A stretch of 64,000 nucleotides of DNA from Patescibacteria group bacterium (GTDB lineage: Bacteria > Patescibacteriota > Patescibacteriia > Patescibacteriales > JBAZCA01): NCBI GenBank assembly GCA_041661405.1, contig JBAZUL010000002.1:3715-67714 (forward strand). The letters run 5' to 3'. Numbering within the stretch: the stretch's first letter is position 1; each line of letters begins with the position of its first letter. This document shows, in pieces, positions 1,321-59,753 of the stretch. A program made the translations under genes and the position numbers. Under the pieces are notes generated by a model that was not told where the DNA came from, searched no databases, and was given only the letters and a program-made list of their open reading frames with translations.

Positions 1321-1480
1321 ATGTGTGGTTATAAAATTGGTAATAAGCGGAAAAATATGGCAATGAAAATAAAAATCGGAAGCAAGAACGTAGGATCGGG
1401 AAGTCCGGTTTTTAAATTCGGATCCGGCGATTTTACTAACCTACCGTTGTCGTCGGCTAATTAAATAAAAATAGATATTT

Positions 1481-20443: not shown

Positions 20444-20812
20444 ATGAAATTAACCGTAAAAATGAGCCAATTGCCGGCCAATCCCGAGCAATTTTTAAGA
20501 AGAGCCGGTTACGGCTATATTGAGGATCGGAGGCGGGGGACAAAAAGCTTTGTCCGGAGGTTAGGAGCCGGGTTTTACCCGAGACTGCATATGTACGCTG
20601 AGCGGGAAGGCGAGAGCGTGTCATTTAATCTCCATCTTGACCAAAAGCAGGCGAGCTACGCCGGAGCGCGCGCCCATAACGCCGAATACGGCGGATCGGT
20701 CGTTTCCGGAGAAATGGAGCGGATAAAAAATTTATTGCTTAACGCGGAACGGGCTGCGCCTGACCCAATTCCGGTCAGGGAAAAGGGATGGTGGAGAAAA
20801 ACATTTAGTTAG
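20444..20812 (+). CDS. Hypothetical protein (GC-richer than its neighbours)
   Basis: ORF only. No recognisable motifs. Confidence 0.3.
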   Translation: MKLTVKMSQLPANPEQFLRRAGYGYIEDRRRGTKSFVRRLGAGFYPRLHMYAEREGESVSFNLHLDQKQASYAGARAHNAEYGGSVVSGEMERIKNLLLNAERAAPDPIPVREKGWWRKTFS

Positions 20813-20819
20813 TTGAATG

Positions 20820-20859
20820 GTTGATTGGTTAATTAGGAATTACTAATTAACCAATCAAC
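20820..20859. promoter_or_regulatory. Perfect 17-bp inverted repeat (GTTGATTGGTTAATTAG-N6-CTAATTAACCAATCAAC) upstream of dnaG
   Basis: The reverse complement of the left arm equals the right arm. It lies 15 bp upstream of the dnaG ATG. Candidate operator or AT-rich hairpin. Confidence 0.4.
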
Positions 20860-20873
20860 TAATTAACCATTAC

Positions 20874-25618: not shown

Positions 25619-25693
25619 TCCCGGGTAGCGCAGCGGTAGCGCAGCTCGCTGTTAACGAGTTGGTCGTCGGTTCGAATCCGACCCCGGGAGCCA
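25619..25693 (+). tRNA. tRNA-Asn (anticodon GUU)
   Basis: Manual fold: acceptor UCCCGGG/CCCGGGA. D-arm GCGC-AGCGGUA-GCGC. Anticodon arm GCUCG-CUGUUAA-CGAGU. T-arm GUCGG-UUCGAAU-CCGAC. Discriminator G, then an encoded CCA. Confidence 0.9.
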
Positions 25694-29988: not shown

Positions 29989-30067
29989 TTTATAATTTTA
30001 GTTTCAAAAGTAGATATGAATAAAAAAGAATTTGCCGCCAAATTGCCCCGCAGATGCGGAGCGGAGC

Positions 30068-30203
30068 GGGCTTTGCCCGCGGGGAAATCATTGCTTTTAA
30101 AAGCGGGGGCTGCGGGCGCTTTTAAAAGCTTTTTATAAAATAGTTTTAAACCTTTTTTTTAAATTCAATTTGAGCTTCGGCGTAAAATCGGAGCCAATAA
30201 AAA
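30068..30203 (+). repeat. Direct repeat copy A (about 135 bp) in the 3' UTR of the 505-aa gene, containing a promoter-like TTAAAT-18-TAAAAT
   Basis: Aligns at about 85% identity with 33641-33750 (GGGCTTTGCCCG...AAAAGCTTTTTATAAAATAGTTT...AATTCAATTYGAGCTTCGGCGTAWAATCGGAGCCAATAAAAA). Followed by its own terminator hairpin at 30204-30231. Confidence 0.6.
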
Positions 30204-33572: not shown

Positions 33573-33640
33573 TTTTTTTACAAAAGCGCCTTGTCGCGGC
33601 AAGCGGTGTCAGGATAAAGAATTTGAAATCGCCCAAAGCC

Positions 33641-33750
33641 GGGCTTTGCCCGTGGGGAATTTTTGCTATTAAAAGCTTTTTATAAAATAGTTTCAAATCT
33701 TTTTTTGAATTCAATTCGAGCTTCGGCGTATAATCGGAGCCAATAAAAAA
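33641..33750 (+). repeat. Direct repeat copy B, with TTGAAT-18-TATAAT promoter-like hexamers, followed by a terminator hairpin (33751-33775)
   Basis: See copy A. Copy A carries an extra 22-bp internal duplication. Confidence 0.6.
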
Positions 33751-44786: not shown

Positions 44787-45926
44787 ATGGAAAAATATCC
44801 CAAACACCTGATTATAATTTCCGCCTTGCTGGCTTTGGCCGGCGTTTTGGCGGTTTTAGTATTTTACCAATTCCCGGGAGGCGGCCGTTCGGAAAGTCCG
44901 GAAAGGAAACAAGCTGAACTCAGTACTGCCGGCGGGGACGGAGAGGAGCCGCAAATTGCCGAAGAAGTTGACAAAGCCGTTGAAGAAGAATTGCCGGAAA
45001 AGGCGAGCCTGGTTTTTGTTGGCGATATCATGCTTGATAGAAATGTTTACCTTAAAGCTAGGGCTAAGGGCGATTACGGTTTTGCTTTTAAAAAAGCCGG
45101 GTCGATTTTTTCCGGAGCGGATTTTCCCATTGCCAACCTTGAAGGGCCGATAACGGACAATAAGTCCGTCAGTCTGGAAAAAGACCGGATGGTTTTTACT
45201 TTTTCGCCCGAATACCTGCCGGTTTTAAAAAAATATTTCAGCGCTTTCAGCCTGGCCAATAACCATACCCTGAACTTCGGGCAAAAAGGGCTCGCGACCA
45301 GCCGCCAATATCTAGAGGAGTCAGGGATGGAATATTTTGGTGATCCGAGTAATGACGAAGAAAACCTCTCTACTGTAATTGAAAAAAACGGCTTTAAAAT
45401 CGGGCTGGCGGGCTATCACAGCCTCTACCGCGACGAGCCGGAAAAAATTGTCAGGGAAATTGAAAAACTCAGGCCGAATTGCGACCTGGTCGTTATCTTT
45501 CCTCACTGGGGCATAGAGTACGCGAGAAAGCCTTCTAAGACTCAGGCGAATGACGCGCGCAAATTTATTGACGCCGGGGCGGATTTAATTATCGGTACGC
45601 ACCCGCACGTAATTCAGACGGTTGAAGTTTACAAAGGCAAGTATGTTTTTTACAGCCTGGGAAATTTTATTTTTGACCAGTATTTTTCCAAAGAAACCAT
45701 GGAGGGCCTCGCGATCAGACTGGATCTCATAAGAACGGGCGGGGAGCTAAAAATGTACTATCGGATCCTTCCTGTCACTATCAGTAAGGAAAGTCAGGCG
45801 GAATTGGCCGGCGAAGAAAGGAGAAGGGAAACTTTAGACTGGCTGGCGGCTAATTCGGAAGTAAGCGAAACAGTCAGGGAGGAAATAAAAACCGGCGCGC
45901 TCAAAGGGGAGCTTTCGGTTAATTGA
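44787..45926 (+). CDS. CapA/PGA_cap family metallophosphatase-fold protein
   Basis: N-terminal TM anchor. Motifs VFVGDIMLDR, ANLEGPIT, LANNHTLNFG, HWGIEY, GADLIIGTHPHVIQ. Confidence 0.7.
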   Translation: MEKYPKHLIIISALLALAGVLAVLVFYQFPGGGRSESPERKQAELSTAGGDGEEPQIAEEVDKAVEEELPEKASLVFVGDIMLDRNVYLKARAKGDYGFAFKKAGSIFSGADFPIANLEGPITDNKSVSLEKDRMVFTFSPEYLPVLKKYFSAFSLANNHTLNFGQKGLATSRQYLEESGMEYFGDPSNDEENLSTVIEKNGFKIGLAGYHSLYRDEPEKIVREIEKLRPNCDLVVIFPHWGIEYARKPSKTQANDARKFIDAGADLIIGTHPHVIQTVEVYKGKYVFYSLGNFIFDQYFSKETMEGLAIRLDLIRTGGELKMYYRILPVTISKESQAELAGEERRRETLDWLAANSEVSETVREEIKTGALKGELSVN

Positions 45927-46170
45927 TTAAATCTCGTCTTCGCGGCTGAATGGTTTTTAGTTTTTCGCGAAGCCCCATTTTCTCGCGCCTCTGGCAGAGA
46001 TAAAAAGAAAAGCGAAAAAGTAGAGAAGCGCCAGTTCGCCCTGATTAACGATAGGGAGGAAGTTGAGCGGAAGATGCGCGCTAATATAAGCGTAAGCTAT
46101 CTCTATCGCGGCAATCGCGGCGAGAGCGCGGGTATGGCTTCTATCGGAGCCGCCAATATGAATAAAAATA

Positions 46171-46208
46171 AAGAGCGACTGCTTTTTTAAGAGTCGCTCT
46201 TTTTCCTT
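46171..46208. terminator. Bidirectional terminator hairpin (AAGAGCGACT-N11-AGTCGCTCTT flanked by A- and T-runs)
   Basis: Seen directly, downstream of prs on the minus strand. Confidence 0.45.
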
Positions 46209-46273
46209 TTAGTCCTCACCCCAACCCCTCTCCATTAACCGATGTTTATAGAGAGGGGTGCTAAAGAATGAGT

Positions 46274-47146
46274 TTAATCAAGCAGATTCCAGCTTATGAG
46301 TCCGCTTATGTCAATATTGGCTTGTTTATTCTTAATTGTGTTGGTGAGATAAAGGCCGTCGTATTTTTCGGCGATGCGTTTTATGCCTTTTTTTAAGACT
46401 CCGTGAGTAATAAGCGCGGAAACTTTTTTCGCGCCGCGCGACTTACATTCATCGTAGAATTTGGTCATTGTTCCGCCGGTTTCTAAAAGATCGTCAATAA
46501 CACCGATGTCTTTGTCGTTAACGGTTTCGGAGAGCCAGTCAGCGCTTTTTTCTTTCATCCGGGTTTCAAATGAATTCAGTCTTTCTTTTTCCACGCCCGC
46601 GATTCCGGTCCGTCTTTGCGATCCCATGTCCGGGGTGATAAAAACCATGTCCGGATTATCTTTTAAGGCCGCTTGTTTTAAAATTTCAACAGCGCTCAGG
46701 TTTTTAATCGGATAATTATTCGTAAAATCTCTACCCCAGAAATGGGCGTCCACTGTCCAAATTTTTTGAACAGCATAATAATGAACCAATTCCTTTAAAA
46801 TATTTTCAGCCGCGTTAATCGCGCCGTCCTGATCAGCGTGATCCTGCATGCCATAAGCAAAGTAGCTGAAAAACACTTCCGGTTGGATATGGTTTTCTTT
46901 TAAGATTTCCAAAACCATTTTCAGCTCCACGAGTCCGTCGTTCGGCCGGGGCATGCCGGAGTGGAGGACTATTGTCTTTCCTTCTAAGGTTTTTATATCG
47001 GGCAGACGGGCGTAAATTTCGCCGTCCGGAAAATATTGCTTCTTATCCTTGTTTTTCCCGACAAAAAAAACTTTAAAATTTTTCTTATCTTTTTTTAAAG
47101 ACTTTCCCAGGTGTTCGGCCTGGGAGGTGGTGATAATATTTACCAT
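46274..47146 (-). CDS. prs: Ribose-phosphate pyrophosphokinase (PRPP synthetase)
   Basis: PRPP-binding loop GVIDDLLETGGTM and the N-terminal ribose-5-P binding region. 290 aa. Confidence 0.8.
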   Translation of the reverse strand: MVNIITTSQAEHLGKSLKKDKKNFKVFFVGKNKDKKQYFPDGEIYARLPDIKTLEGKTIVLHSGMPRPNDGLVELKMVLEILKENHIQPEVFFSYFAYGMQDHADQDGAINAAENILKELVHYYAVQKIWTVDAHFWGRDFTNNYPIKNLSAVEILKQAALKDNPDMVFITPDMGSQRRTGIAGVEKERLNSFETRMKEKSADWLSETVNDKDIGVIDDLLETGGTMTKFYDECKSRGAKKVSALITHGVLKKGIKRIAEKYDGLYLTNTIKNKQANIDISGLISWNLLD

Positions 47147-47148
47147 AT

Positions 47149-47796
47149 TTAGGCTTTAAATGATCTTAGTTTTTCAATGGCTTTAATCCGGTCTTTGGAC
47201 TTAAAAATATAGGATCCGGCGACAATATTATTGGCTCCGGCTTTGATAGCCAGAGGGGCGGTAATATTATCCATTCCGCCGTCAATTTTAATTTCAATAT
47301 CAGGAAATTTTTTCCTTAAGTAAGTCGCCTTAGAGAGTTCTTTGGCCATGAATTTTTGCCCGCCAAAACCGGGAGTAACCGTCATGATGACATAATAGTC
47401 CGCCAAACCAAAGTAAGGGAACAATTCTTCAACCGGGGTTTTCGGGCTGATGGCTACCCCGGCCGGTTTGCCAAATTTTTTAGTAGTTTCAAGGCTGAGT
47501 TTAGTCATTTCTTCTCCGAGTTCTACGTGGGTGGCAATCCGAGCCGCTCCGGATTCTATGAAATGGTGGATATGCTTGGCCGGATTTTCTATCATTAAAT
47601 GGCAATCAAGGGGCAGTTTGGATTTGATGCAATTTAAAATTGTATAGCCGAAAGTGATGTTCGGGACAAAATGGCCGTCCATGACATCAACATGGAGATA
47701 ATCGGCGTAATCTTCAACCGATTTGATTTCCTCATTTAAGCGGCCAAAATCGGCCGCTAAGATGGACGGAGAGATTTTTATTCGCTGTTTTGGCAT
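47149..47796 (-). CDS. rpe: Ribulose-phosphate 3-epimerase
   Basis: ISPSILAADFGRLNEEI...HVDVMDGHFVPNITFG...DGG signature. Confidence 0.85.
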   Translation of the reverse strand: MPKQRIKISPSILAADFGRLNEEIKSVEDYADYLHVDVMDGHFVPNITFGYTILNCIKSKLPLDCHLMIENPAKHIHHFIESGAARIATHVELGEEMTKLSLETTKKFGKPAGVAISPKTPVEELFPYFGLADYYVIMTVTPGFGGQKFMAKELSKATYLRKKFPDIEIKIDGGMDNITAPLAIKAGANNIVAGSYIFKSKDRIKAIEKLRSFKA

Positions 47797-47923
47797 TTGA
47801 GAGTTTATTATTATTATATTGAAACAATATCACAACGCGCGCCTGAATTCAAGGCGCGAGGCATTTACAAATGGCGAATAAATAGGGTAATATGGAGTTA
47901 AGATAATAACTAATACTAAAATT

Positions 47924-48859
47924 ATGGACAGAAATCTAGCTTTGGAGTTTGTCCGGGTTACTGAGGCGGCGGCTATCGCGGCGGCTAAATGGATTGGAAA
48001 AGGCGAGGGAAAAAAGGCTGACGGCGCGGCCGTGGACGAGATGCGCGACCGTTTTAACCAGATTAATTTTAAAGGCAAGGTGGTAATCGGCGAAGGCGCT
48101 AAAGACGAAGCGCCTGAGCTCTATACCGGGGAAATCGTTGGAAAAGGGAAAGGCCCGGTCATGGACTTAGCCATTGATCCTTTGGAGTGCACCGACTCGG
48201 TCGCTTTCGGGCGCTATAACGCCATTACCGTGATCACCGCCGGAGCGCCAAAATCACTCATGTCCGCGCCGGACGCTTATATGGAAAAAATAGCGGCCGG
48301 GCCCAAAGCTGCTAAAGTGATAAGGCTGGACGCGCCGGTTAAGGTGAATATTGAAAGAACCGCTAAAGCCTTAGGGAAGAAAAAGAGCGACATTACCGTC
48401 TGCATATTAGACCGGGAACGCCATGAGGATTTAATAAAAGAAGTCCGGCAAGCCGGAGCCCGGGTAAGGCTTATAACCGACGGGGATGTCGCCGGCGGAA
48501 TCGCCCCTTCCATGCCGGATACGGGGATTGACCTTCTTATGGGAATCGGATCGTCAACCGAAGCGGTTTTAGCCGCGGCGGCCATTAAAATTCTCGGCGG
48601 AGAAATTCAGGCCCGCTTTAAGCCGATAAATGAGACGAGCGAGAAGGTTATTAAAAAAGCCGGCATGTCGTTAAATAGAATTTACCGGACCGAAGATCTG
48701 GCTAAAGGAAAGCAATTAACTTTTACCGCCACCGGCGTAATAGACGGCCCGCTACTTTCCGGGGTACGGATTACCGATAACGCCATTATTACTCATTCTA
48801 TTGTCATGCGGGGCATGTCCGGGACTATCCGCTATATTACAACCCATCACCATAAATAG
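47924..48859 (+). CDS. glpX: Class II fructose-1,6-bisphosphatase (GlpX type)
   Basis: MDRNLALEFVRVTEAAAIAAAKWIGKG...DGAAVDEMRD closely parallels the GlpX N-terminus. VIGEGAKDEAPELYTGE and DPLECT motifs. Confidence 0.8.
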   Translation: MDRNLALEFVRVTEAAAIAAAKWIGKGEGKKADGAAVDEMRDRFNQINFKGKVVIGEGAKDEAPELYTGEIVGKGKGPVMDLAIDPLECTDSVAFGRYNAITVITAGAPKSLMSAPDAYMEKIAAGPKAAKVIRLDAPVKVNIERTAKALGKKKSDITVCILDRERHEDLIKEVRQAGARVRLITDGDVAGGIAPSMPDTGIDLLMGIGSSTEAVLAAAAIKILGGEIQARFKPINETSEKVIKKAGMSLNRIYRTEDLAKGKQLTFTATGVIDGPLLSGVRITDNAIITHSIVMRGMSGTIRYITTHHHK

Positions 48860-48860
48860 A

Positions 48861-48982
48861 AGGACTTCCAGGTTTGGCGCATTTCTTCGTTGGCGCCTGC
48901 GATACTCACTCGTCGTAGCTTCAAGTACGCCTCGTTCCGTTTCTCGGCGCCGCCTAGAACTGCATCCAAACCTTAAAGTCCT
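48861..48982 (+). repeat. GC-rich about 120-bp element with terminal inverted repeat (AGGACTTCC ... AAAGTCCT), copy 1, in the glpX-fba spacer
   Basis: Homologous (about 70% identity) to 58510-58693. Local GC content is well above the flanks. Internal hairpin GGCGC-N12-GCGCC. Confidence 0.55.
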
Positions 48983-48992
48983 CAATTCTAAT

Positions 48993-50024
48993 ATGTTAGA
49001 CCCTCAAAAAATCCAAAAACTAAAAGCGACGGCCAAAGCCATGGTGGCGCCCGGAAAGGGAATATTGGCCGCTGACGAAAGTACGGCCACGATTGAAAAA
49101 CGGTTCGCTAAAATCAATGTTCCTTCAACCGAGGATAATCGCCGTCGTTACCGGGAAATGCTTTTTACTACGCCGGGACTAAATAGCCATATCAGCGGAG
49201 TAATTCTTTTTGATGAGACTTTCCGGCAGTCCGGTTCGGACGGTAGGACATTTGTGTCATTTTTAAAAGAGGTCGGAATCATGCCCGGGATTAAGGTGGA
49301 CAAAGGCTTGGACGCTATGCCGGATTCGCCGACGGAAAAAATTACCAAAGGCCTTGACGACCTTGAAGACCGGCTCAGAGAATACGCCGAACTCGGCGCC
49401 CATTTTGCCAAATGGCGGGCGGTAATAACCATTACCGATACGACCCCAACGGACGCCAATATTGAAAAAAACGCCAAAGATTTGGCCGCTTACGCTCTGG
49501 CCTGCCAGCGCGCCGGGATTGTGCCGATTGTTGAGCCGGAAGTCTTAATGGACGGCGTCCATAGCCTTAAAAGATGCGAGGAAGTAAGCGGAAAAGTCCT
49601 GGAAGCGGTCTTCCGCGAGCTGGAGGCCGTTGGAGTAGAAATGGAAGGGATTATTTTAAAGCCTAACATGGTTTTGCCAGCTAAAGAATCCGGAGAAACT
49701 GCTCATCCGGAACATGTTGCCTCAGCGACTTTAAGGATATTTAATAAGCACTTGCCGAAAAATTTGCCGGGCGTGGCTTTTCTTTCCGGCGGACAGTCGG
49801 AAATTGAAGCGACCGAAAACCTTCACGCCATAAACAAGCTCGGGCCGCACCCCTGGACACTTTCCTTTTCTTACGGCCGGGCTCTGCAGGACAGCGCCTT
49901 AAAAACCTGGGCCGGAAAAGAGGAGAACATTAAAGCCGCCCAGGAAAAGTTATTGCACCGGGCGAAGATGAAAGGTCTCGCGGCCAAAGGCGAATACGAC
50001 CGGGAATTGGATTGGAAAGAGTAA
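48993..50024 (+). CDS. fba: Class I fructose-bisphosphate aldolase
   Basis: GKGILAADESTATIEKRF class I aldolase signature. Start set at ATG 48993; the upstream in-frame extension covers the repeat element and is not coding-like. Confidence 0.8.
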   Translation: MLDPQKIQKLKATAKAMVAPGKGILAADESTATIEKRFAKINVPSTEDNRRRYREMLFTTPGLNSHISGVILFDETFRQSGSDGRTFVSFLKEVGIMPGIKVDKGLDAMPDSPTEKITKGLDDLEDRLREYAELGAHFAKWRAVITITDTTPTDANIEKNAKDLAAYALACQRAGIVPIVEPEVLMDGVHSLKRCEEVSGKVLEAVFRELEAVGVEMEGIILKPNMVLPAKESGETAHPEHVASATLRIFNKHLPKNLPGVAFLSGGQSEIEATENLHAINKLGPHPWTLSFSYGRALQDSALKTWAGKEENIKAAQEKLLHRAKMKGLAAKGEYDRELDWKE

Positions 50025-50037
50025 AGTTTCTGTAATG

Positions 50038-50916
50038 TTAAGCCAGTAATTTTACCAATTTTTCTTTTACGCCGGCCGGAGTAAGGCCGATGCATTGGTC
50101 ATGCTCTTCTGCCTGGCCGTATTTGTTTAAGAATTCTATTGGCACGCCGACGGTTTCTACCTGGATGGCCCGGCCGGTTAAAGTTTCCATCACTTCCGGC
50201 AAAATCGCGCCGCGGTAATAGGGCTCGCAAATGAGAATTTTACCTGAAGCAGAATTGGCTTTGAGCGTTTCTTTGTCAAAAGGCGCGACTGTCGTGTAAT
50301 AGAGAATAGTGACATTCATATCCCGAGCCGCTTCCAGAACCGGTTTAAGGCTCGGGCCGACGGCAATAACCGTGGCCTTGGAACCGGTCTTAATAATATG
50401 CGCCTGGCCGAATTTTACCGGATAACTTTCCGGATTGCTTTTTTCTGACAAACGGAAATAAGTCGGCTTTCCATCGCTATAGGCTTGGAGAAATAAGTCG
50501 TGGAATTCCTGGGCCGTTCCCGGCAAAACGATTTCCATGCCTGGGATGTGTTTTAAAATTCCGACATCGCCGGGGCAGTGGTGCGTGCATCCTAAGGCCG
50601 CGTAGTCGTAAGAGCCGCCGATAGAGATAAAGTTGCCGCCTAATTTCTGGTAGCCGAAATCCAGCTTTAACTGTTCGTAAGTCCTTTCAATTAAAAACGG
50701 GGCAATGGTGTGAAAAATCGGAGTAAAGCCGGTCATAGCGAGGCCGGCCGCCAGCCCTACCGTTGCCTGCTCCAGGATGCCGATATTATAGGCGCGGCCG
50801 GGATATTTTTTTATGGTGTCAACAAAACCTTTGACGCTTATGTCGCCGAGTAAAAGAACGGCCTTTTCGTCTTTTTCAATCACGTCTGTGATGGTGGTAA
50901 AAAATTGTTTTCTCAT
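50038..50916 (-). CDS. Transketolase, C-terminal (pyrimidine-binding + C-terminal domain) subunit
   Basis: 292 aa with transketolase Pyr/C-terminal domain motifs. Together with the adjacent upstream gene it forms a split transketolase. Confidence 0.8.
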   Translation of the reverse strand: MRKQFFTTITDVIEKDEKAVLLLGDISVKGFVDTIKKYPGRAYNIGILEQATVGLAAGLAMTGFTPIFHTIAPFLIERTYEQLKLDFGYQKLGGNFISIGGSYDYAALGCTHHCPGDVGILKHIPGMEIVLPGTAQEFHDLFLQAYSDGKPTYFRLSEKSNPESYPVKFGQAHIIKTGSKATVIAVGPSLKPVLEAARDMNVTILYYTTVAPFDKETLKANSASGKILICEPYYRGAILPEVMETLTGRAIQVETVGVPIEFLNKYGQAEEHDQCIGLTPAGVKEKLVKLLA

Positions 50917-50920
50917 AATT

Positions 50921-51727
50921 TTATCCCCTGTTATTTAATTCACCCAGAAATTCATCCAGCTCCTCGTCGTTCGGCATTTTATGGTGCCAGGCGAGCATGT
51001 CGCTTTCAATCTTTTTTATTCCCCGGCCTTTAACCGTATTGGCGATTATAGCTTTGGGTCTGCCGCCCGGATCTTTCATAAAAGCCTGGTAGAGCGCTTC
51101 CTGGTCATGCCCGTCAGCCTCAAAACTTTCCCAGCCGAAGGCTTTAAATTTTTCCGTAAAATCATGGACTTTAATGGCCGGGTCGGTTGAATGGTTGTAA
51201 TCAACAATGCAGGTAAGGTTGTCTAGCTTATGGTGGCCGGCGAGCAGCGCCGCTTCCCAGATAGTCCCTTCGTTTGATTCGCCGTCGCCGATAATGGTAT
51301 AGACTTTAACGTCGGATTTTTTTATTTTTTCCCCCAGGGCGACGCCGACCGCGATTGGCATGCCATGACCGAGCGAACCGGTAGAAGCTTCAACACCCGG
51401 GACTTTGTTGCAGTCCGGATGGCCGCCCAGCTTTGAGTCGTAAGCGGCGAAATTTTCAAATTCGCTAAAGTCAAAAAAGCCTTTGTTCGCGAGGATGGCA
51501 AACAGTCCGATTGAGGCGTGGCCTTTGCTTAAAATAAAGCGGTCCCGATCCGGGGCGTTGGGATTTTTCGGGTCAATCCGGAGCACCCGGTCGTAGAGCG
51601 CGAACATGATGTCAAGAATGGAAAAGGCGCTCGGAATATGGCCTTCTTTTTTTGAGTGGACGGTTTTCAGGATGATTTTTTTTAGGTCAATTATGTTTTC
51701 TTTCATAAAATTTTTATGTTCAGCCAA
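50921..51727 (-). CDS. Transketolase, N-terminal (thiamine-diphosphate-binding) subunit
   Basis: GHASIGLFAILANKG, GSLGHGMPIAVGVALG and the TPP motif IGDGESNEG. 268 aa. Confidence 0.8.
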   Translation of the reverse strand: MAEHKNFMKENIIDLKKIILKTVHSKKEGHIPSAFSILDIMFALYDRVLRIDPKNPNAPDRDRFILSKGHASIGLFAILANKGFFDFSEFENFAAYDSKLGGHPDCNKVPGVEASTGSLGHGMPIAVGVALGEKIKKSDVKVYTIIGDGESNEGTIWEAALLAGHHKLDNLTCIVDYNHSTDPAIKVHDFTEKFKAFGWESFEADGHDQEALYQAFMKDPGGRPKAIIANTVKGRGIKKIESDMLAWHHKMPNDEELDEFLGELNNRG

Positions 51728-52160
51728 TTTTTTTTATTCTTCTTTCATGTCGGCCGCCTTCAAATTTCGTGGTAAGCCAAAGATCAATAGCTTCTTTTAC
51801 CTGGTTAAAAGAAATAAACTTAGCGCCGATTGACAAAACATTCGCGTTATTATGTTGGCGGGACAATTTAATTATTTCCAGATTATATCCGTAATACAAG
51901 GCCGCTCGCACTCCTTTTATTTTGTTGGCGGCAATAGCTTCGCCTTGTCCGCTCATACCTAAAATTATTCCTTTATCTTCCGGATTGCCGGCGCTGACTT
52001 TGGTCGCGCAAGGGATGATAAAATCAGGATAGTCGTCATTTTTATCATAAGAATGCGGTCCGCAATCCTCCACTTTATAGTCCTTTGATTTTAAATAATC
52101 CGTGATCTGATTTTTTAATTCAAACCCGGCGTGATCCGAGGCAATGTAAATGGTACTCAT
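51720..52160 (-). CDS. rpiB: Ribose-5-phosphate isomerase B
   Basis: IYIASDHAGFELK, CGPHSYDKNDDYPDF and GMSGQGEAIAANK motifs of RpiB/LacAB. Confidence 0.85.
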   Translation of the reverse strand: MSTIYIASDHAGFELKNQITDYLKSKDYKVEDCGPHSYDKNDDYPDFIIPCATKVSAGNPEDKGIILGMSGQGEAIAANKIKGVRAALYYGYNLEIIKLSRQHNNANVLSIGAKFISFNQVKEAIDLWLTTKFEGGRHERRIKKIG

Positions 52161-52183
52161 AGCGCTTATCTTAGCATAATTAT

Positions 52184-53530
52184 TTATTTTTTTCCATTGA
52201 GCGAAGCCGCCAGTTTTTTCGCGTCCATGAGATCATCCAAAACTTTCTTTTCCACTCCTTCTTTTTTCAAAACCTCCCGAATATCCAGATCGCGATTGCT
52301 GTTTAAATCTTTTATTATCCGAGCCACTTTGTCATAGCCCAAAATCGGGGTGAGGGAAGTAAGCCGGGTGGTATTTTTCATGGCGTAATTCTCGCAGTTT
52401 TCTTTATTGGCTTTAATTCCGTCAACGCAACCCTCGGCCAATATTTTTACGCCTTTGGCAAAAAACCGGAGCGACTCAATGAGGTTATGGGCGAGGACGG
52501 ACATGAAAACGTTTAATTCCAGCTGGCCATGTTCAACCACCATAGTTACGGCGAGATCATTGCCGTAAACATGAAAAGCGATCTGGTTGATAAGCTCGGG
52601 AATAACCGGATTAACTTTGCCGGGCATGATACTGGAGCCTTTTTGCATTTCCGGCAGTTTGATTTCGTAAAAACCGCAAGTCGGGCCGCTCGCGAGAAGC
52701 CTTAAGTCGTTGGCGTTTTTAGTAATGGCCGCCAGGGTAGTTTTAATCCCGGCCGAAACATCCGAGAAAGAATCAACGTTCTGAGTAGCGTCAACCAAAT
52801 CTTCGGCCGATCGGACCGGCAGGCCGGTATTTTTTCTTAAGTGCTTTATGGTTAATTCCGTGTATTTTTTTCCCGCGTTAACTCCGGTGCCGGTCGCCGT
52901 GCCACCAATGCTTAAATCCAGCATTCCCTGGCGCACCCGGTTTAAGCGAGCCGCCCCGCGCCGGGCTACCATTTTATAGGCGTTAAATTCCTGGCCAAGG
53001 GTCATGGGAACGGCATCCTGCAGATGGGTTCGGCCGGTTTTAACAATTCCGGAAAATTCTTTAGCTTTTTTATCCAATGATTTTTCTAAAATTTTTAATG
53101 ATTCAATGCAATCTTCGGTTAATACGTAGATGGCCATTTTCAGGGCGGTAGGGAGGACGTCGTTAGTGGATTGGGAAAGGTTGACATCATTCAAATAATG
53201 GATTTTTACTTTTCCGCCGGAGAGCTCGGTTGCCAGTCCGGCAATTACTTCATTAACGTTCATGTTAATGCTCGTTCCGGCGCCGCCCTGGATAGCCGGA
53301 GTAACAAACTGGTCGTCGTAGGTTCCGGTCTGGATTTTTTTAATGGCTTTTTCAATCAGTTCGTAGCGTTCCCGGGAAATTTTTTTCAGCTCGTAGTTGG
53401 CCTGATTGGCCGCCCGCTTCACTTCAACGATTTGTTTTACCCAGTAAAGGGAAACTTTTTGCCGGGAGACATTGAAGTTTTTCAAAGCCAGTTCGGTCTG
53501 CTCGCCGTAGTACTTTTTTTGGTTTGGCAT
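52184..53530 (-). CDS. aspA: Aspartate ammonia-lyase-like class II fumarase/aspartase family lyase
   Basis: GSSIMPGKVNPVIPEL signature (the VNPV-IPE variant favours aspartase over fumarase C) and TGRTHLQDA. Confidence 0.65.
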   Translation of the reverse strand: MPNQKKYYGEQTELALKNFNVSRQKVSLYWVKQIVEVKRAANQANYELKKISRERYELIEKAIKKIQTGTYDDQFVTPAIQGGAGTSINMNVNEVIAGLATELSGGKVKIHYLNDVNLSQSTNDVLPTALKMAIYVLTEDCIESLKILEKSLDKKAKEFSGIVKTGRTHLQDAVPMTLGQEFNAYKMVARRGAARLNRVRQGMLDLSIGGTATGTGVNAGKKYTELTIKHLRKNTGLPVRSAEDLVDATQNVDSFSDVSAGIKTTLAAITKNANDLRLLASGPTCGFYEIKLPEMQKGSSIMPGKVNPVIPELINQIAFHVYGNDLAVTMVVEHGQLELNVFMSVLAHNLIESLRFFAKGVKILAEGCVDGIKANKENCENYAMKNTTRLTSLTPILGYDKVARIIKDLNSNRDLDIREVLKKEGVEKKVLDDLMDAKKLAASLNGKK

Positions 53531-53558
53531 AGATGATATTTTTTTAAGCTATTTAAGA

Positions 53559-54154
53559 TTAGTTTTGTTCTTCATCATGTTTTTCCGGCAGTTTCTCAAA
53601 TATCCAGATAAAGGCGTTGTAATTACGCATGTTTTTTTCGTTTTCCAATAGATTCCAATCAGGATCCTCATTAAATTCTTGCAGATTTCCAATATTTATT
53701 TCATTGATCAGCTTGAATTTTTTTGTTAGCATGCCAAAATATGGTTTTGCTGTCATCGGAGTGTATAATTCAATAACTCTTAGGTGTCCACCATCTTTTA
53801 ATATCCTAAAAATTTCTTCCAGTAGTTTTTCGGTAAGGGCAGGGTATCCTATAACATTTGCTAATACTACTTCATCAGCCACATTATTTCTAACCGGAAA
53901 TTCAAAAGCTGACGACAGGGTCAGTATAATTCTATTGTTAGCGCCTGAAACTTCAGTCGCATTTTGGTCTAGCTGTTTTTTAGATCCTTTAAGCTCTTCT
54001 TCACAAATATCAATCCCAATATATTTTTGATGGTTATTTTCAAATTGTTTCTTTCTTCCGAAGTCATGATTACCGGAGACATGCCTGTGCCGATTTCTAC
54101 GGTTATTTTATTATCAAGTGTTGTTTCTTTTTTTTCTACGATTCTTTCTAACAT
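53559..54154 (-). pseudogene. Class I SAM-dependent methyltransferase interrupted by a frameshift (fragments 54154-53969 and 53882-53559)
   Basis: The N-terminal fragment carries motif I (VEIGTGMSPV). The next frame continues with KYIGIDICEEELKGSKK...ADEVVLANVIGYPALTEKLLEEIFRILKDGGHL (post-I and II/III motifs). The frames switch at an A5 run around 54020-54035. Confidence 0.5.
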
Positions 54155-54158
54155 ATTT

Positions 54159-55091
54159 TTAGGTAGTCAGCGCTTTATGCAGTAAGGCCATGCGGACGTA
54201 AAGGCCGTTTTTGGCCTGGCGAAAATAAGCGGCGCGGGAATCGGCGTCTACGGCCGGGTCAATTTCGTAGATTCGGGGCATGACATGCAAAATTATGGAC
54301 TTGGCTTTCATTCGGTTTACCATGGCCTGATCTATGAACAGGGATTTTTTCAGCCTTTCGTATTCAGCCGGATCGGAAAAGCGCTCTTTAAAAACCCGTG
54401 TAACGTATAAGACATCCAGCTGGCCGATTATCCGGTCAATGTTTTCCAGTTCTTCGTATTTAATTCCAGCCCGATCCAGCTGATCTTTGTATTCGTTCGG
54501 CAGGCGCAGTTCCGGCGGGGAAACAAAGAATAATTCAATTTTTTTAAACAAAGGGAAGAGAGGGATTAAAGAGTGGATATTCCTTTGGTAGCGGAAGTCC
54601 GCGAGAAAAGCTATTTTCAGGCCGTCAATTTTTCCGAGTTCTTTTTCAATCGTGTATAAATCATACAAGGCCTGGGTCGGATGTTCGTTATAGCCGTCGC
54701 CGCCGTTAATAATCGGAACAGTGGAAACTTTAGCCGCGGTTTCGGCCGCGCCATTTTCCGGGTGGCGCAATACAATGGCATCGCAGTAGCCGGAAACCAC
54801 CTTAATCGTGTCAGTAAGACTTTCGCCCTTAGAAGCCGAAGATGCGGCCGCGTTGGCCGTTGAAAGGACGTTAGCGCCGAGCTTAAAAGCGGCGGATTCA
54901 AAAGACAGCCGGGTGCGGGTGGAGGATTCGTAAAAAAGCGTGGCGACGATTTTTCCAGCGCAGTCTTTTTTTATCGCGCCAATTTCGTCCAGCTTTTGGA
55001 ACTTCGCGGCTTTAACGAAGATTTCTTTTAATAATTTTTTGTCGGCGAACTGGGGGCCGTTTAGAACGTGAAACATATAGATAATTTCCAA
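54159..55091 (-). CDS. pyrB: Aspartate carbamoyltransferase catalytic subunit
   Basis: YESSTRTRLSFE, HPTQAL and the carbamoyl-P/aspartate binding motifs. 310 aa. Confidence 0.85.
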   Translation of the reverse strand: MEIIYMFHVLNGPQFADKKLLKEIFVKAAKFQKLDEIGAIKKDCAGKIVATLFYESSTRTRLSFESAAFKLGANVLSTANAAASSASKGESLTDTIKVVSGYCDAIVLRHPENGAAETAAKVSTVPIINGGDGYNEHPTQALYDLYTIEKELGKIDGLKIAFLADFRYQRNIHSLIPLFPLFKKIELFFVSPPELRLPNEYKDQLDRAGIKYEELENIDRIIGQLDVLYVTRVFKERFSDPAEYERLKKSLFIDQAMVNRMKAKSIILHVMPRIYEIDPAVDADSRAAYFRQAKNGLYVRMALLHKALTT

Positions 55092-55227
55092 TTCCTAATT
55101 TCTAATTTCCAATAAAATGTCTAATTTTTAATGTCCAAAAAAACAAAATTTAATTTTTTACATTGGACACTTGGACTTTCATTGGTAATTAGTAATTGGA
55201 AATTAGATATTCAAATAAGATTTAAAA

Positions 55228-58200
55228 TTATATATCCATCTTACCCTTAGGCATATACTCCCGCCAGGACTTAATTTCCAGGTCGTCAAGCGATTTTTCG
55301 GTAAGGGCTTTTATAAAGGAGCGGGCTAATTGCAAATCCGTAAAAAGCGGGATATGCGAATCAACCGCGGCTCGGCGGATAAGATAGCCGTCGGTAACTT
55401 CGCCGCCGACTTTTTTTACTTTTTCGCCGTTCTGTTCGCTCAGGTTAATAACAAAGGCGACTTTTTTTTCATTGATCAGGTCAATGACACTGGGCATCTT
55501 TCCGTCGTTCAGTTTGTAAACTATTTCAGCCGGAATCTCGCGCTCTTTTAAGAAATCATAAGTCGCGCCGGTGGCGTAGAGTTTATAGCCGGCGTCGGAG
55601 AGGAGTTTAGTAGCTTCAAAAAGCCTGCGTTTATTAACCGGGCCGCCGAGAGTTAAAAGGGCGGATTTTTTTTCAGTCAGGTTGTTGGAAGCGAGAATGG
55701 CTTTTAAGAGGGCTTCGCCGAGATCAGCGCCGAAAGCGGCGACTTCGCCGGTTGAAGACATCTCAACTTTTAAGACCGGGTCGGCGCCAGCGAGGCGGGC
55801 AAAAGAAAACTGGGGCGATTTTACGGCTACGTGATCCGGATAAGAAAGCCGAACCGGCGATCCTTTCTTGTAAAAAGAGTCAACAATCAGGCGGGCGAAA
55901 TTAACTCCCGAGGCTTTTGAAATAAAAGGCAGGGTGCGGCTCGCGCGCAAATTTATTTCTATAACGTAAACTTTGTTTTCTTTAACGAGAAACTGAATAT
56001 TATACGGGCCGGTGATGTTTAAGGATTTGGCCAGCTTGCGGCTCGTACTTTTTATTTCTTCCTCGGTTGAAGAAAAGACTTTTTGAGTCGGGTATGCGAT
56101 AGTGGCGTCGCCGGAGTGGACGCCGGCGTTTTCCAGGTGTTCGGAAATTGCGTAAACGAGCGTAACCCCGTCCTGAGCCACGGCGTCGTATTCTATCTCT
56201 TTGGCGTTAACCATGAATTTTGACACGGTAACCGAATATTTTTTCGCCGTGAGCCCCAAGGCTTTTTCCACGAAATTTTCAATGTCAGCGTCGTTAAAGC
56301 AAACGCTCATGGCCGAGCCGGAAAGGACATAAGACGGCCGGACGAGAACCGGATAATCCACCTTGGCGGCGAAAGTTTTCGCTTCGGCGATTGAAGCGCA
56401 ATTGGCCCATTCGGGCTGGGGGATGGAAAGCTCGTCGCAGAGCGCGGAAAATTTTCCCCGGTCTTCGGCCCGGTTTATGTTTTCGGGCGCGGTGCCTAAG
56501 ATTGGCACTTTATTTTCATGGAGTTTTCCCGCGAGATTATTCGGGCGCTGGCCGCCGACGGAGATCGCGACGCCGCCGGATTTTTCAAAATCATAAATGT
56601 CCAGCACGGTTTCAAGATTCAGGTCTTCAAAGTAAAGCCGGTCAGACATGTCATAATCGGTAGAAACGGTTTCCGGATTACAGTTGACGATGATTGATTT
56701 TTTCCGGTATTTCTTTAAAGAAAGGGCGGTATTGACGCAGGACCAGTCAAACTCAACCGAAGAGCCGATATGGTAAGGGCCGGAGCCTAAAACCATGACC
56801 GAGTTTTTGCCGAGCGGTTTAACGTCATTATGCGAGCCGTGGTAAGTAAGATAAAGGTAGTTGGTTTTGGCCGGCGCTTCGCCCGCCAGAGTATCAATCT
56901 GGAAAACCGAAGGCGTTATTTTCAGTTTTTTTCTTAAGTACCGGACTTCGGCTTCGGTTTTTCCCGCGAGCTTGCCGATAATTTTATCCGAAATTCCAGC
57001 TTGCTTGGATTTTAAGAGGCTCTCTTTATCAAGTTTTTTCTTTTCGCCGAGTTCTTTTTCAATCTCTACGATATTTTTCAGGCGATAAAGGAACCAGGGG
57101 TCAATGCCGGTCATCTCATGAATTTTCTCCGCGTCCATCCCGCGCTTAAAGCCTTCAGCTAAAGCGAAAATTCTTTTCGGGGTCGGGATTTTAATCCATC
57201 TTTCCAGATCAGGCGTTGCCGTATTAAAACCGGCGTAAGAGATGCCCCGGGCTTTTGAAGCGAGCATGCGCACGGCCTTCTGCAAGGCTTCTTCAAAGGA
57301 GCGGCCGATAGCCATCACTTCGCCGACCGATTTCATGGCCGAACCGATAGTTTCTTCGGCGCCGGAAAATTTTTCTAAATCCCAGCGCGGAATTTTTACG
57401 GCGACGTAATCAAGAGCCGGTTCAAAAAAGCTCTGCGTAATTTTGGTCACCTGGTTTTTAACTTTGTTCAGGGTGATGCCGAGCGCCAGTTTGGCGGCGA
57501 CGTAAGCTAAAGGGTAGCCCGTGGCCTTGGATGCCAATGCCGATGAACGCGAAAGTCTGGCGTTTACCTCTATGACATAATATTCAATTTTTGTATTTAG
57601 TATTTTGTATTTTGTATTTTGTATTTGTTCTTGATTTTGTCCCTTACTTTGCATGAGATCAGTATTCGGATTTTTCGGTTTTGGGTTTAGAGCAAATTGA
57701 ACATTACACTCGCCCACGATGCCAAGACTTTGGACTATTTTAATAGAGATCTGTCTTAGAGCGTGATACTCGTCATTAGTTAAAGTCTGCGAAGGCGCGA
57801 CCACTATGGATTCGCCGGTATGGATGCCCAAAGGATCCATGTTTTCCATATTGCAGACCGTAACGCAGTTGCCGGCCGAGTCGCGAACCACTTCGTACTC
57901 AATTTCTTTGAAATGATGGAGATATTTTTCAACTAAAACTTGCGGAGAGACAGCCAGAGCGGCGGAAACAATTTCAATAAGCTGTTTTTCATCATAAGCC
58001 ACGCCGGATTTTTGTCCGCCCAAAGTAAAGGCGGCCCGAACCATCACCGGATAGCTGATTTTTTCGGCTATGGCTTTTGCCTGTTCCAGTGTTCCGCAGG
58101 CTTCGCTCGGAGGCACGCTTACATTCATGCCGCGCAGATGGTCGGCGAATTTTTGCCGGTCTTCGGTAAGCTCAATAGCCGAAACCGGGGTGCCTAAAAC

Positions 58201-58710
58201 TTTTACCCCGTATCTTTTTAAGATGCCCTTGTCGTATAATTCCAGGCCGCAGTTTAAGGCCGTCTGGCCGCCGAAAGATAAAAGTATGCCGTCGGGTTTT
58301 TCTTTGGCGATTATTTTTTCCACGAAATAAGGCGTGACCGGCAGGAAATATATCTCGTCGGCGAGAAGCGGGGAAGTCTGGATTGTAGCAATATTGGGAT
58401 TAACTAAAACTGTTTTAATCCCTTCCTCTTTTAAAGCTTTCAGGCCTTGCGAACCCGAATAATCAAATTCTCCGGCTTCGCCGATTTTTAGGGCGCCGGA
58501 ACCAAGGACTAAGACTTTTTTTATTTTGTAGGACTTCCGCGCCAGTCGCCCGTCGGCGGGCAAAGCCCGCCCTCTGGCGACTTTTTGGCCAATTTCTTCG
58601 TTGGAACCTCCGCTTGGGCCTCGCCGTAGATGGACTACGCCGTCGGCCCAATGCTCGGTTCCGCCTTGAACTTGGCTCAAACGCGAAAGTCCTATTTTCT
58701 TTGATTTCAT
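55228..58710 (-). CDS. carB: Carbamoyl-phosphate synthase large subunit, with a 63-aa atypical N-terminal extension and an internal about 33-aa low-complexity insert
   Basis: Duplicated ATP-grasp halves (VLVLGSGALKIGEAGEFDYSG ... VMVLGSGPYHIGSSVEFDWS) and an MGS-like C-terminus. 1160 aa. The N-terminal 63 codons coincide with the GC-rich repeat element. The insert is encoded by a heptanucleotide array. Confidence 0.9.
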   Translation of the reverse strand: MKSKKIGLSRLSQVQGGTEHWADGVVHLRRGPSGGSNEEIGQKVARGRALPADGRLARKSYKIKKVLVLGSGALKIGEAGEFDYSGSQGLKALKEEGIKTVLVNPNIATIQTSPLLADEIYFLPVTPYFVEKIIAKEKPDGILLSFGGQTALNCGLELYDKGILKRYGVKVLGTPVSAIELTEDRQKFADHLRGMNVSVPPSEACGTLEQAKAIAEKISYPVMVRAAFTLGGQKSGVAYDEKQLIEIVSAALAVSPQVLVEKYLHHFKEIEYEVVRDSAGNCVTVCNMENMDPLGIHTGESIVVAPSQTLTNDEYHALRQISIKIVQSLGIVGECNVQFALNPKPKNPNTDLMQSKGQNQEQIQNTKYKILNTKIEYYVIEVNARLSRSSALASKATGYPLAYVAAKLALGITLNKVKNQVTKITQSFFEPALDYVAVKIPRWDLEKFSGAEETIGSAMKSVGEVMAIGRSFEEALQKAVRMLASKARGISYAGFNTATPDLERWIKIPTPKRIFALAEGFKRGMDAEKIHEMTGIDPWFLYRLKNIVEIEKELGEKKKLDKESLLKSKQAGISDKIIGKLAGKTEAEVRYLRKKLKITPSVFQIDTLAGEAPAKTNYLYLTYHGSHNDVKPLGKNSVMVLGSGPYHIGSSVEFDWSCVNTALSLKKYRKKSIIVNCNPETVSTDYDMSDRLYFEDLNLETVLDIYDFEKSGGVAISVGGQRPNNLAGKLHENKVPILGTAPENINRAEDRGKFSALCDELSIPQPEWANCASIAEAKTFAAKVDYPVLVRPSYVLSGSAMSVCFNDADIENFVEKALGLTAKKYSVTVSKFMVNAKEIEYDAVAQDGVTLVYAISEHLENAGVHSGDATIAYPTQKVFSSTEEEIKSTSRKLAKSLNITGPYNIQFLVKENKVYVIEINLRASRTLPFISKASGVNFARLIVDSFYKKGSPVRLSYPDHVAVKSPQFSFARLAGADPVLKVEMSSTGEVAAFGADLGEALLKAILASNNLTEKKSALLTLGGPVNKRRLFEATKLLSDAGYKLYATGATYDFLKEREIPAEIVYKLNDGKMPSVIDLINEKKVAFVINLSEQNGEKVKKVGGEVTDGYLIRRAAVDSHIPLFTDLQLARSFIKALTEKSLDDLEIKSWREYMPKGKMDI
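57594..57628. repeat. Heptanucleotide tandem array (TATTTWG)x5 inside the carB coding sequence
   Basis: TATTTAG TATTTTG TATTTTG TATTTTG TATTTGT. Encodes the ...NTKYKILNTKIEY... insert in the CarB oligomerisation/ATP-grasp region. Confidence 0.6.
58510..58693 (+). repeat. GC-rich TIR element copy 2 (184 bp), located inside the first 63 codons of the carB ORF
   Basis: AGGACTTCC...AAAGTCCT termini. Homologous to copy 1. Contains extra nested hairpins (GGCGGGCAAAGCCCGCC). Confidence 0.55.
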
Positions 58711-58712
58711 AG

Positions 58713-59753
58713 TTATATTTTTTTCAAAAATTCATCAAACAGCCAGCCGGTATCTAACGGCCCCGGCCGGGATTCAGGATGGAACTGGACCGACATGAAC
58801 GGCAGATTGCCATGGATTATGCCTTCGTTGGTATTATCGTTAGCGTTATAAAACCATTCGCGAAATCCTTTGGGAATTTTACCGACGGCAAAGCCGTGAT
58901 TTTGCGTGGTTAAATAGCATTTATCCGTTCCTTTAATTACTGCCGGTTGGTTCTGACCCCGGTGGCCGAATTTTAATTTGTAAGTATCGCCGCCAGCCGC
59001 CAAAGCTAGAATCTGGTTTCCCAGGCAAATGCCAAACGTCGGAATTTTTTTCGCCAAAAGTTTCCTTACGTTGGCGATGGTTTTATTCGCCATTTTCGGA
59101 TCGCCCGGGCCGTTGGAAATTACACAGCCGTCAAATTTAATATTGGCATTTAAAAAATCATAGTCCCAGGGGACTATGATGACTTCGACATTTCTTGCCG
59201 AGAGCTCGCGGGCGATGTTGGCTTTGGCGCCGCAATCTATTAAGACAATAGTTTTATTGCCACTGCCATAGGACTCTATTGTAAATATTTTTTTAGTAGA
59301 TACCCGGGCGACGAGATTTTCCTTATTCGGATCGGCGAATTGGATTTTTTCTCCCAATTCAATTTTTCCGAGCATGGCGCCTTTGGTTCTTAATTTTTGC
59401 GTGAGAGCCCTCGTATCTTTAATTTCCAAAGCCGGAATGCCTTCGTCTTTCAGCCAGTCGCCTAATGTCCTTTCGCTTTGATGATGGGACGGCGTCTTTA
59501 TATAAGAGGAAACAATCAAGCCGGAAACCTGAATTTTATCCGATTCCCAATATTCTTTGGATGGAACACCGTAATTTCCCTGAAGCGGGTAGGTCATGAC
59601 GAGAATCTGCCCGGCATAAGACGGGTCAGTAAGGCTTTCCGGATAACCGACCATGCCGGTCGCGAAAACCACCTCTCCGGCAATGGATTTTTCTTTGCCA
59701 AAAGAATATCCGGAAATTTCGGTCCCGTCTTTTAGTATGAGTTTGCCTGTCAT
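58713..59753 (-). CDS. carA: Carbamoyl-phosphate synthase small (glutamine amidotransferase) subunit
   Basis: CPSase_sm N-domain and GATase motifs (GICLGNQILALAAGG, catalytic Cys, HGFAV). Confidence 0.9.
   Translation of the reverse strand: MTGKLILKDGTEISGYSFGKEKSIAGEVVFATGMVGYPESLTDPSYAGQILVMTYPLQGNYGVPSKEYWESDKIQVSGLIVSSYIKTPSHHQSERTLGDWLKDEGIPALEIKDTRALTQKLRTKGAMLGKIELGEKIQFADPNKENLVARVSTKKIFTIESYGSGNKTIVLIDCGAKANIARELSARNVEVIIVPWDYDFLNANIKFDGCVISNGPGDPKMANKTIANVRKLLAKKIPTFGICLGNQILALAAGGDTYKLKFGHRGQNQPAVIKGTDKCYLTTQNHGFAVGKIPKGFREWFYNANDNTNEGIIHGNLPFMSVQFHPESRPGPLDTGWLFDEFLKKI

Follow-up and report, generated by a model that had tools for sequence, protein, structure and literature searches.

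Two copies of a palindromic element

The 64,000-nt window analysed here (the whole stretch of DNA studied: Patescibacteria group bacterium, GCA_041661405.1, JBAZUL010000002.1, positions 3,715–67,714 of the forward strand) carries two copies, c1 and c2, of a small palindromic element, the first in the spacer between glpX and fba and the second within the 5′ end of carB. Both are very probably copies of a transposable element of the miniature inverted-repeat type (MITE). The features concerned, in window coordinates, are:

47924–48859, + strand: glpX (fructose-1,6-bisphosphatase II), upstream of c1; open reading frame (ORF), with Pfam FBPase_glpX on the identical contig L002
48860–48983, + strand (the ATTTCTTCGTTGG strand): c1, ~124 bp (48861–48982, 122 bp), glpX–fba spacer; found with covariance model R1
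48881–48893, + strand: c1 5′ core block ATTTCTTCGTTGG; no variation in alignments A3 and A4, an invariance partly built in, as the collection scans demanded ATTTCTTCGTTGG
48950–48961, + strand: c1 3′ core block CCGCCTAGAACT, 56 nt downstream of the 5′ block
48993–50024, + strand: fba (class I aldolase), downstream of c1; exact protein look-up, Pfam Glycolytic
50023–50030, + strand: AAAGTTTC, probable left-terminus remnant of a third copy; 8 nt of the terminus seen in contig L215, then TGTAATGT
55228–58710, − strand: carB, ORF of 1160 aa with all CarB domains, CPSase_L_D1 from residue 63 (Pfam)
58524–58528, no strand assigned: c2 left flank TTTTG (CAAAA on the carB strand), putative 5-bp duplication, 4/5 against the right flank
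58529–58694, + strand (motif strand antisense to carB): c2, 166 bp, within the carB 5′ end; found with R1
58542–58583, + strand: nested GC-rich hairpin of 42 nt, in c2 only, flanked by the terminal stem and the TTTGG block; alignment A1 and fold
58592–58604, + strand: c2 5′ core block ATTTCTTCGTTGG, from the sequence
58661–58672, + strand: c2 3′ core block CCGCCTTGAACT, from the sequence
58695–58699, no strand assigned: c2 right flank TTTTC (GAAAA on the carB strand), putative duplication partner, from flank comparison
58713–59753, − strand: carA (ORF), TAA stop 2 nt before the carB ATG

The two copies are homologous. A blastn comparison of c1 with the whole window picked out c2 (111 nt aligned, 69% identity, E 3e-6), no other match falling below E 0.8. 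The window contains exactly two copies, since scores of R1 over the 64 kb drop from 141 bits for c1 (E 1e-31) and 90 bits for c2 (E 3e-19) to 17 bits for the next-best match (excluding c1 itself read on the opposite strand). An earlier reading made from the letters alone (the sequence-only reading) had proposed two homologous elements of about 70% identity, and the copies do align far better than chance. The termini it listed as shared (AGGACTTCC...AAAGTCCT) and the shared blocks ATTTCTTCGTTGG and CTCGYCGTAG are present as described; TCGKTTCCG, also listed, does not lie at homologous positions in c1 and c2. The GC contrast that it called sharp is real, but moderate (window 43.5%, c1 54%, c2 62%).

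c1 starts 2 nt past the glpX stop and ends 10 nt upstream of the fba ATG (48993), filling the spacer as had been reported. c2, previously placed at 58510–58693 (184 bp), occupies 58529–58694 (166 nt), the first 19 nt of the former span being ordinary carB codons (KKVLVL). The extra nested GC hairpin already noticed in c2 (GGCGGGCAAAGCCCGCC) is confirmed as its main difference from c1. Terminal inverted repeats are AGGACTTCCAGGTTTGG / CCAAACCTTAAAGTCCT in c1 and TAGGACTTCCGCG / CGCGAAAGTCCTA in c2, and relatives of these copies have perfect terminal repeats of 16–20 bp. With a size of 122–166 bp, the element has no ORF of its own beyond read-through frames. The element junctions are not an artefact of a single assembly, because two contigs from an independent MEGAHIT assembly (ENA ERZ27249449) match the window at 100% identity throughout both copies.

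Hairpin fold and conserved core

c1 and c2 each fold end to end as one imperfect hairpin. Fold energies of the + and − strands are −47 and −54 kcal/mol for c1 (z about −6), and −88 and −99 kcal/mol for c2 (z −7.8 and −8.9, respectively); 0/200 shuffles fold as well as either copy. The family core consists of ATTTCTTCGTTGG, 56 nt, then CCGCCTYGAACT, with the 56-nt spacing kept in 12 of 16 genome copies measured, including the two in the window. As CCGCCTYGAACT was absent from the genome-scan pattern, this 3′ block was found independently of it. Terminal stems have no common sequence between lineages (GGACTTACGCG, AAAACCTCAGA, GGATTAAGTA, GGGAACCTCTAAAAAC, GTTCAAAAAGTCC), although the scans demanded the core, and its seemingly stronger conservation relative to the termini is in part an ascertainment effect.

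Pairing is maintained despite this divergence: 88.5% of alignment cells are paired, compared with 61% in shuffled and 33–48% in slid-partner controls, in an alignment that had been fitted to the model's own structure. Compensatory changes altering both sides were identified in 36 of 41 stem pairs, G-U pairs are rare, and both strands pair equally well.

Nested GC palindromes similar to that of c2 are also present in L009 (~372–392) and L047 (~6190–6260), and GC-rich perfect palindromes of this kind fill the carA–carB spacer of the relative L227 (2755–3000). Short GC-rich palindromes may be mobile hairpins of another, smaller class that these genomes also carry.

Family size and distribution

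Scanning one genome per species with the pattern TTTGGNNNATTTCTTCGTTGG matched 101 stretches. The second block, CCGCCTYGAACT, is also found in 15 loci of six Patescibacteria metagenome-assembled genomes (MAGs; Parcubacteria, Azambacteria, Liptonbacteria, Moraniibacteriota and others), as well as in one of the four Saccharibacteria matches, one Campylobacterota MAG and one Rickettsiella MAG (hosts assigned from record titles), within a hairpin of equal length. A metagenome scan requiring both blocks returned at least 120 contigs, with ~3.5 chance matches expected by our own estimate, and R1 gave 94 matches in 571 kb of collected loci, some with a core departing from the pattern.

Rfam 15, at gathering and permissive thresholds, identified nothing at the elements in the window and 18 loci, the best permissive matches (E 0.11–7) being to unrelated families, and a tRNA/tmRNA scan of the window gave nothing at either copy. 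c1 had no blastn match in plasmid and phage collections, and the core pattern had 0 matches in 2.9 million viral contigs. A literature search with the core strings returned unrelated primer matches only, and no relevant report of MITEs in the candidate phyla radiation (CPR)/Patescibacteria was found in a limited literature search. The family is large and apparently undescribed, but a known type of thing.

In the Rickettsiella MAG contig L088 (1831–3004), 3–4 copies lie between 16S, tRNA-Ile, tRNA-Ala and 23S genes, adjoining the 5′ sides of tRNA-Ile, tRNA-Ala and 23S in these Rickettsiella-like operons, and the same spacer arrangement is seen in related metagenome contigs (L118, L123 at 8590–9731, L164 and L178). 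L111 and L181 have a copy between tRNA genes, and two copies border an Azambacteria 16S gene, one on either side (L066: 86–227 and 2751–2891). The 16S genes of L088 and L123 are 92.9% identical and their spacers colinear (~76%), which shows that the rRNA-spacer copies have long been retained in the Rickettsiella-like lineage.

Evidence for mobility

Near-identical copies of the GGGAACC subfamily (metagenome Ga0247727) are present at 31 different sites. Perfect abutting 4-bp target-site duplications (TTAA, TCAA, TTGA, TGAA, TATC and others) flank 23 of the 31, with 3 bp duplicated in three more. In the window subfamily, with boundaries TAGGACTT...AAGTCCTA, the 5-nt flanks of 12 copies agree at 33/60 positions, compared with 20.3 +/- 3.4 when permuted (P = 0.00025), including 5/5 in L053 (TAAAT/TAAAT), 4/5 in c2 and 3/5 in c1. 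Adding the duplication to the element gives a length divisible by three in every case examined (122+4=126, 124+5=129, 166+5=171).

Orientation relative to neighbouring genes is random, with 23 co-oriented and 17 anti-oriented copies in tandem gene contexts, while convergent gene ends are preferred over divergent ones (22 vs 7). Strain polymorphism was found next to c1. A JGI contig (L215) 99.57% identical to window positions 45127–50161 carries a third copy directly after the fba stop (4890–5111; AAAGTTTCCGTGTTCGG...CCGAACACGGAAACTTT, with core ATTTCTGCGTTGG), plus ~90 bp with a terminator-like hairpin. In the window only the 8-nt remnant listed above occurs at this position, and 50023–50038 looks like a deletion derivative of the L215-type state.

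Insertion of c2 into carB

As the sequence-only reading noted, the carB ATG (58710) lies 2 nt past the carA stop. Written on the carB strand, the junctions are AAAGAAAA|TAGGAC...GTCCTA|CAAAATAAAAAAAGTC, and the insert comprises the 166-nt element plus a 5-nt duplication, i.e. 171 nt or 57 codons, placed after carB codon 6. Excising these 171 nt gives ATGAAATCAAAGAAAATAAAAAAAGTC, encoding MKSKKIKKVLVLGSG, the N-terminus found in relatives. What had been described as a 63-aa element-encoded extension is instead a 57-codon insertion.

The 120 closest CarB relatives, covering 67–79% of a 260-aa query, all lack the insert, so that the extension is not ordinary conserved protein sequence. Among 14 that were aligned, 13 begin 3–13 residues before KKVLVLGSG (e.g. 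MKNKKYKKILVLGSG); the other (P0107) has a longer N-terminus unlike the insert, with an internal Met located five residues N-terminal to the motif. carB of the related genomes L226 and L227 starts with ATGAATAAATTTAAGAAAATT and ATGACCAAAAAATTCAAGAAAATT, respectively, with no element. In these two genomes carA/carB are split into many short ORFs (L226:2478–6161; L227:1658–6348), which are probably long-read frameshift errors and not pseudogenes.

A second in-frame copy was identified in purH of a Liptonbacteria MAG (L046:1598–1722; ORF 284–2092, minus strand), where it encodes residues 123–164, between the MGS-like (16–116) and AICARFT/IMPCHase (187–529) domains. Its reading frame within the element is that of the carB copy (...AVQGGT...SNEEMRQ... 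in purH, ...QVQGGT...SNEEIGQ... in carB), and any production of the enzyme requires this copy to be translated. Such in-frame gene insertions are rare in the family: no frame is depleted in stop codons (7–17 of 58 copies stop-free per frame, ~10 expected) and a profile of the insert peptide, searched against 5.8 billion proteins, found five small ORFs only and no further enzyme fusions.

Translation through c2 is predicted and is the favoured outcome, with moderate confidence, because the ancestral ATG has kept its 2-nt distance from the carA stop, with the hairpin starting at +17 after it. A hairpin starting there lies just beyond the footprint of the initiating ribosome. Peptides predicted to derive from the insert include LSQVQGGTEHWADGVVHLR and GPSGGSNEEIGQK.

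Initiation downstream of, or inside, the element, leaving most of c2 as a 5′ leader, is unlikely but has to be weighed. No ATG, GTG or TTG occurs between the element and the conserved CarB N-terminus. The candidates for such a start are one ATA, two codons before KKVLVLGSG, and two in-frame TTG inside c2, one of them in the loop of the nested hairpin with a purine-rich AGAGGG 7 nt upstream. This TTG is buried in a 7-bp GC stem-loop. The great stability of the hairpin on the carB sense strand (−98.9 kcal/mol) would suit a leader, and an open frame does not argue strongly for translation. However, the ancestral ATG is preserved in its exact position, the insertion is still divisible by three with the 42-nt nested hairpin included, and the mid-ORF purH copy, which has to be translated, uses the same frame.

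Is the element a structured RNA?

A second alternative is that the element chiefly serves the host as a structured RNA (a cis-acting processing, stability or regulatory hairpin) and that its repetition reflects function and not transposition. The strong covariation of the hairpin, the sequence conservation of the internal loops at the fixed 56-nt spacing and the syntenic Rickettsiella-like rRNA-operon copies shared between organisms with 92.9% identical 16S would all fit, and an orientation-dependent influence of ERIC on mRNA decay has been reported (PMC2229807). Against this, the copies favour neither strand with respect to flanking genes, and the two window copies present opposite strands to the mRNA. 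The rarity of G-U pairs and equal pairing of both strands are as expected of DNA, Rfam provided no match, and promoter and terminator scans of both copies found none. Target-site duplications, copy-number bursts and strain polymorphism show mobility. A primary RNA role is therefore improbable, although a secondary, exapted one can still be true. Where the sequence-only reading had offered a MITE-like mobile or a structured-RNA element, the mobile element is upheld by the duplications, the random orientation, the strain polymorphism and the absence from carB of the 120 closest relatives, while strand-specific structured RNA is not favoured as its primary nature.

That the carA–carB junction is an assembly artefact, or carB a dead gene, is barely credible: the genome comes from a metagenome and carB is fragmented in the long-read contigs L226 and L227, but contig L001 of the independent MEGAHIT assembly agrees with the window at every position of the junction (100% identity), and the 1160-aa ORF is intact with all CarB domains. 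Equally remote is intron-like excision of the hairpin from the mRNA at its base, giving CarB without the insert, for which geometry alone speaks (a perfect terminal stem bringing the flanks together), as there are no matches to ribozyme or intron families, neither the frame nor the stop-free state would be needed, the carB and purH copies are both in frame, and we know of no bacterial machinery for such excision.

Proposed origin and significance

Insertion of a non-autonomous MITE at both loci, with c2 tolerated in frame in carB, is the likely overall explanation. In this scheme an element of ~124 bp, a non-autonomous DNA transposon forming one imperfect palindrome over its entire length, would be moved by a transposase presumably supplied in trans, with a 4–5-bp staggered cut in A/T-rich targets. 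c1 would have inserted between the glpX stop and the fba start, and c2 into an A-rich stretch past carB codon 6 (ATGAAATCAAAGAAAA^TAAAAAAAGTC). c2 would have escaped purifying selection because the insert is 171 nt long and the carB frame through it is stop-free. CarB would still be initiated at the ancestral ATG, coupled to the carA stop, and would gain 57 residues, probably disordered, between Ile6 and Lys64.

Several observations weigh against parts of this explanation. The duplications at c1 (3/5) and c2 (4/5) are imperfect. The window and ~1.4 Mb of loci yielded neither a transposase nor an autonomous partner, and no cognate insertion sequence (IS) was identified among pairs of termini 0.4–4 kb apart in them, the pairs seen apparently being two separate elements joined or chance 9-mers, as judged without individual checks. 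The open frame through c2 is weak evidence of translation: c2 leaves two of its three sense frames open, and the carB/purH frame is stop-free in 11 of 23 related, Patescibacteria-type copies (2/23 and 5/23 for the other two frames of the same strand), an excess that may reflect inheritance rather than selection. The AlphaFold2 model, in which residues 1–47 have a predicted local distance difference test (pLDDT) score <50 and no secondary structure precedes residue 65, would fit a floppy tail, but low confidence is expected anyway for a segment without alignment depth. Finally, a hairpin of about −99 kcal/mol from +17 after the ATG could hinder expression.

The family is new, but of a known kind, its notable features being the host range, the clean in-frame insertion in carB and the unexplained conserved internal core. 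It provides a marker for strain-level variation in Patescibacteria genomes and is a source of annotation errors (spurious small ORFs and extended N-termini). It would also add a clear example, beyond those in Rickettsia and enterobacteria, of essential enzymes (CarB and PurH) that have taken in selfish DNA.

Other features of the window

A separate pair of direct repeats (30060–30203 and 33640–33749; ~110–140 bp, 88–91% identical), each beginning with a CGGGCTTTGCCCG hairpin, is unrelated to the element. Downstream of carB is an AT-rich region (55077–55372) with 30-nt inverted repeats at 55077–55106 and 55181–55210, exactly where the MEGAHIT assembly broke (contig L002 stops at 55077, and L001 begins at 55373). 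An AT-rich palindrome at 20812–20867 has two 28-nt arms, 86% complementary, with no spacer. The window also contains an AdoCbl-II riboswitch (13399–13495, minus strand; 40.4 bits, above the gathering score) and a tRNA-Asn gene (25619–25693).

Comparison with known elements

Several known classes were set aside. 6S, signal recognition particle (SRP), 5S and RNase P RNAs, K-turn and T-loop motifs and self-cleaving ribozymes misfit in motifs or copy number, and Rfam is silent. The repeat pair of a diversity-generating retroelement is excluded, as c1–c2 differences are not adenine-specific and the family is dispersed. REP/REPIN elements (RAYT-mobilised 20–40-bp palindromes with a GTAG/CGTC tag and no duplication) do not correspond to a unit of at least 122 bp with duplications.

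Of the general properties of bacterial MITEs, the following are present: a size <300 bp, no transposase gene, terminal inverted repeats, target-site duplication and many dispersed copies with presence/absence differences (31 or more sites, the L215 copy and empty carB sites). Correia/NEMIS, RUP, BOX and other MITEs are likewise small, with terminal inverted repeats, target-site duplications and no coding capacity, and they also share a preference for gene ends and co-transcription with neighbours. Each of these, however, is confined to a genus and defined by termini matching a parent IS, whereas here the part shared across lineages is internal and the termini differ, a contrast partly built in by scans that required the core. 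QMITE1 and QMITE2 of Coxiella burnetii are MITEs of a Rickettsiella-related lineage that overlap ORFs and small RNA genes, but their sizes, repeats and features (300–400 bp with 2–4-bp repeats, and 150–190 bp with 7–11-bp repeats and a GTAG REP-like core, respectively; PMC5896051) do not fit, and identity with either is rejected.

In behaviour, c2 in carB and the L046 copy in purH resemble Rickettsia palindromic elements (RPE), hairpin elements of ~105–150 bp found in frame in housekeeping genes and tolerated as an extra peptide (PMC10969869, PMC2229807), and c2 also behaves like intragenic ERIC/RU-1 copies (Delihas; PMC2759123, PMC2229807). RPE differs in being Rickettsia-specific, with about half of its copies in ORFs, whereas nearly all copies here are intergenic, and in that most of its copies keep an open frame with a conserved peptide, which is not seen here (7–17/58 per frame).

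The closest known analogue in form is ERIC of enterobacteria (IRU/RU-1, MITEEc1; Enterobacteriaceae and Vibrio). ERIC has 127 bp, compared with 122–126 bp here, and both are imperfect palindromes over their whole length with TA termini. ERIC is dispersed mostly in transcribed intergenic spacers and is sometimes fused in frame to ORFs (PMC2759123, PMC2229807), a pattern repeated in this family. An E. coli copy (L225) has colinear motifs (CTGCGTT(T/G)G, GTCAC-TTAC...GTAA-GCTCCT at the apex and CGCCTT...AACT), each within 1–2 nt of the matching relative position in the family. In global alignments to ERIC, 12/12 family members score above shuffles in the predicted orientation (z 1.4–5.4), compared with z −3.0 to +2.7 in the opposite one.

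There are also clear differences from ERIC. Its 44-nt central consensus is absent from the window copies, as is its central inverted repeat (GTGAATCCCCAGGAGCTTACAT/AAGTAAGTGACTGGGGTGAGCG), of which only GTCACTTAC...GTAAGCTCCT is shared, by the L113-type subfamily alone. The family sequence profile (nhmmer) gave no match to ERIC, and three covariance models scored it at 6.2, 15.1 and 18.4 bits, an unrelated hairpin scoring 19. Duplications are of 4–5 bp here and TA in ERIC, and instead of enterobacteria or vibrios the hosts here are Patescibacteria and a Rickettsiella-like lineage. The likeness is suggestive only, and homology is treated as a lead, without filing the family as ERIC.

A more doubtful extension is that these elements belong to an ancient, cross-phylum MITE superfamily, possibly including ERIC, in which two asymmetric internal loops and an apical hairpin, rather than the termini, would be conserved at fixed spacing. 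If so, the mobilising machinery might recognise the folded core (single-stranded or cruciform) and cut at the hairpin base whatever the terminal sequence; alternatively, the core might act at the RNA level, as a module that prevents insertions from doing harm within transcripts, and have been co-opted as an rRNA/tRNA spacer structure in Rickettsiella-like bacteria. To our knowledge, the transposase of ERIC-type elements has never been found, and if the conserved core proves functional, it would bear on how such elements are mobilised and why they persist.

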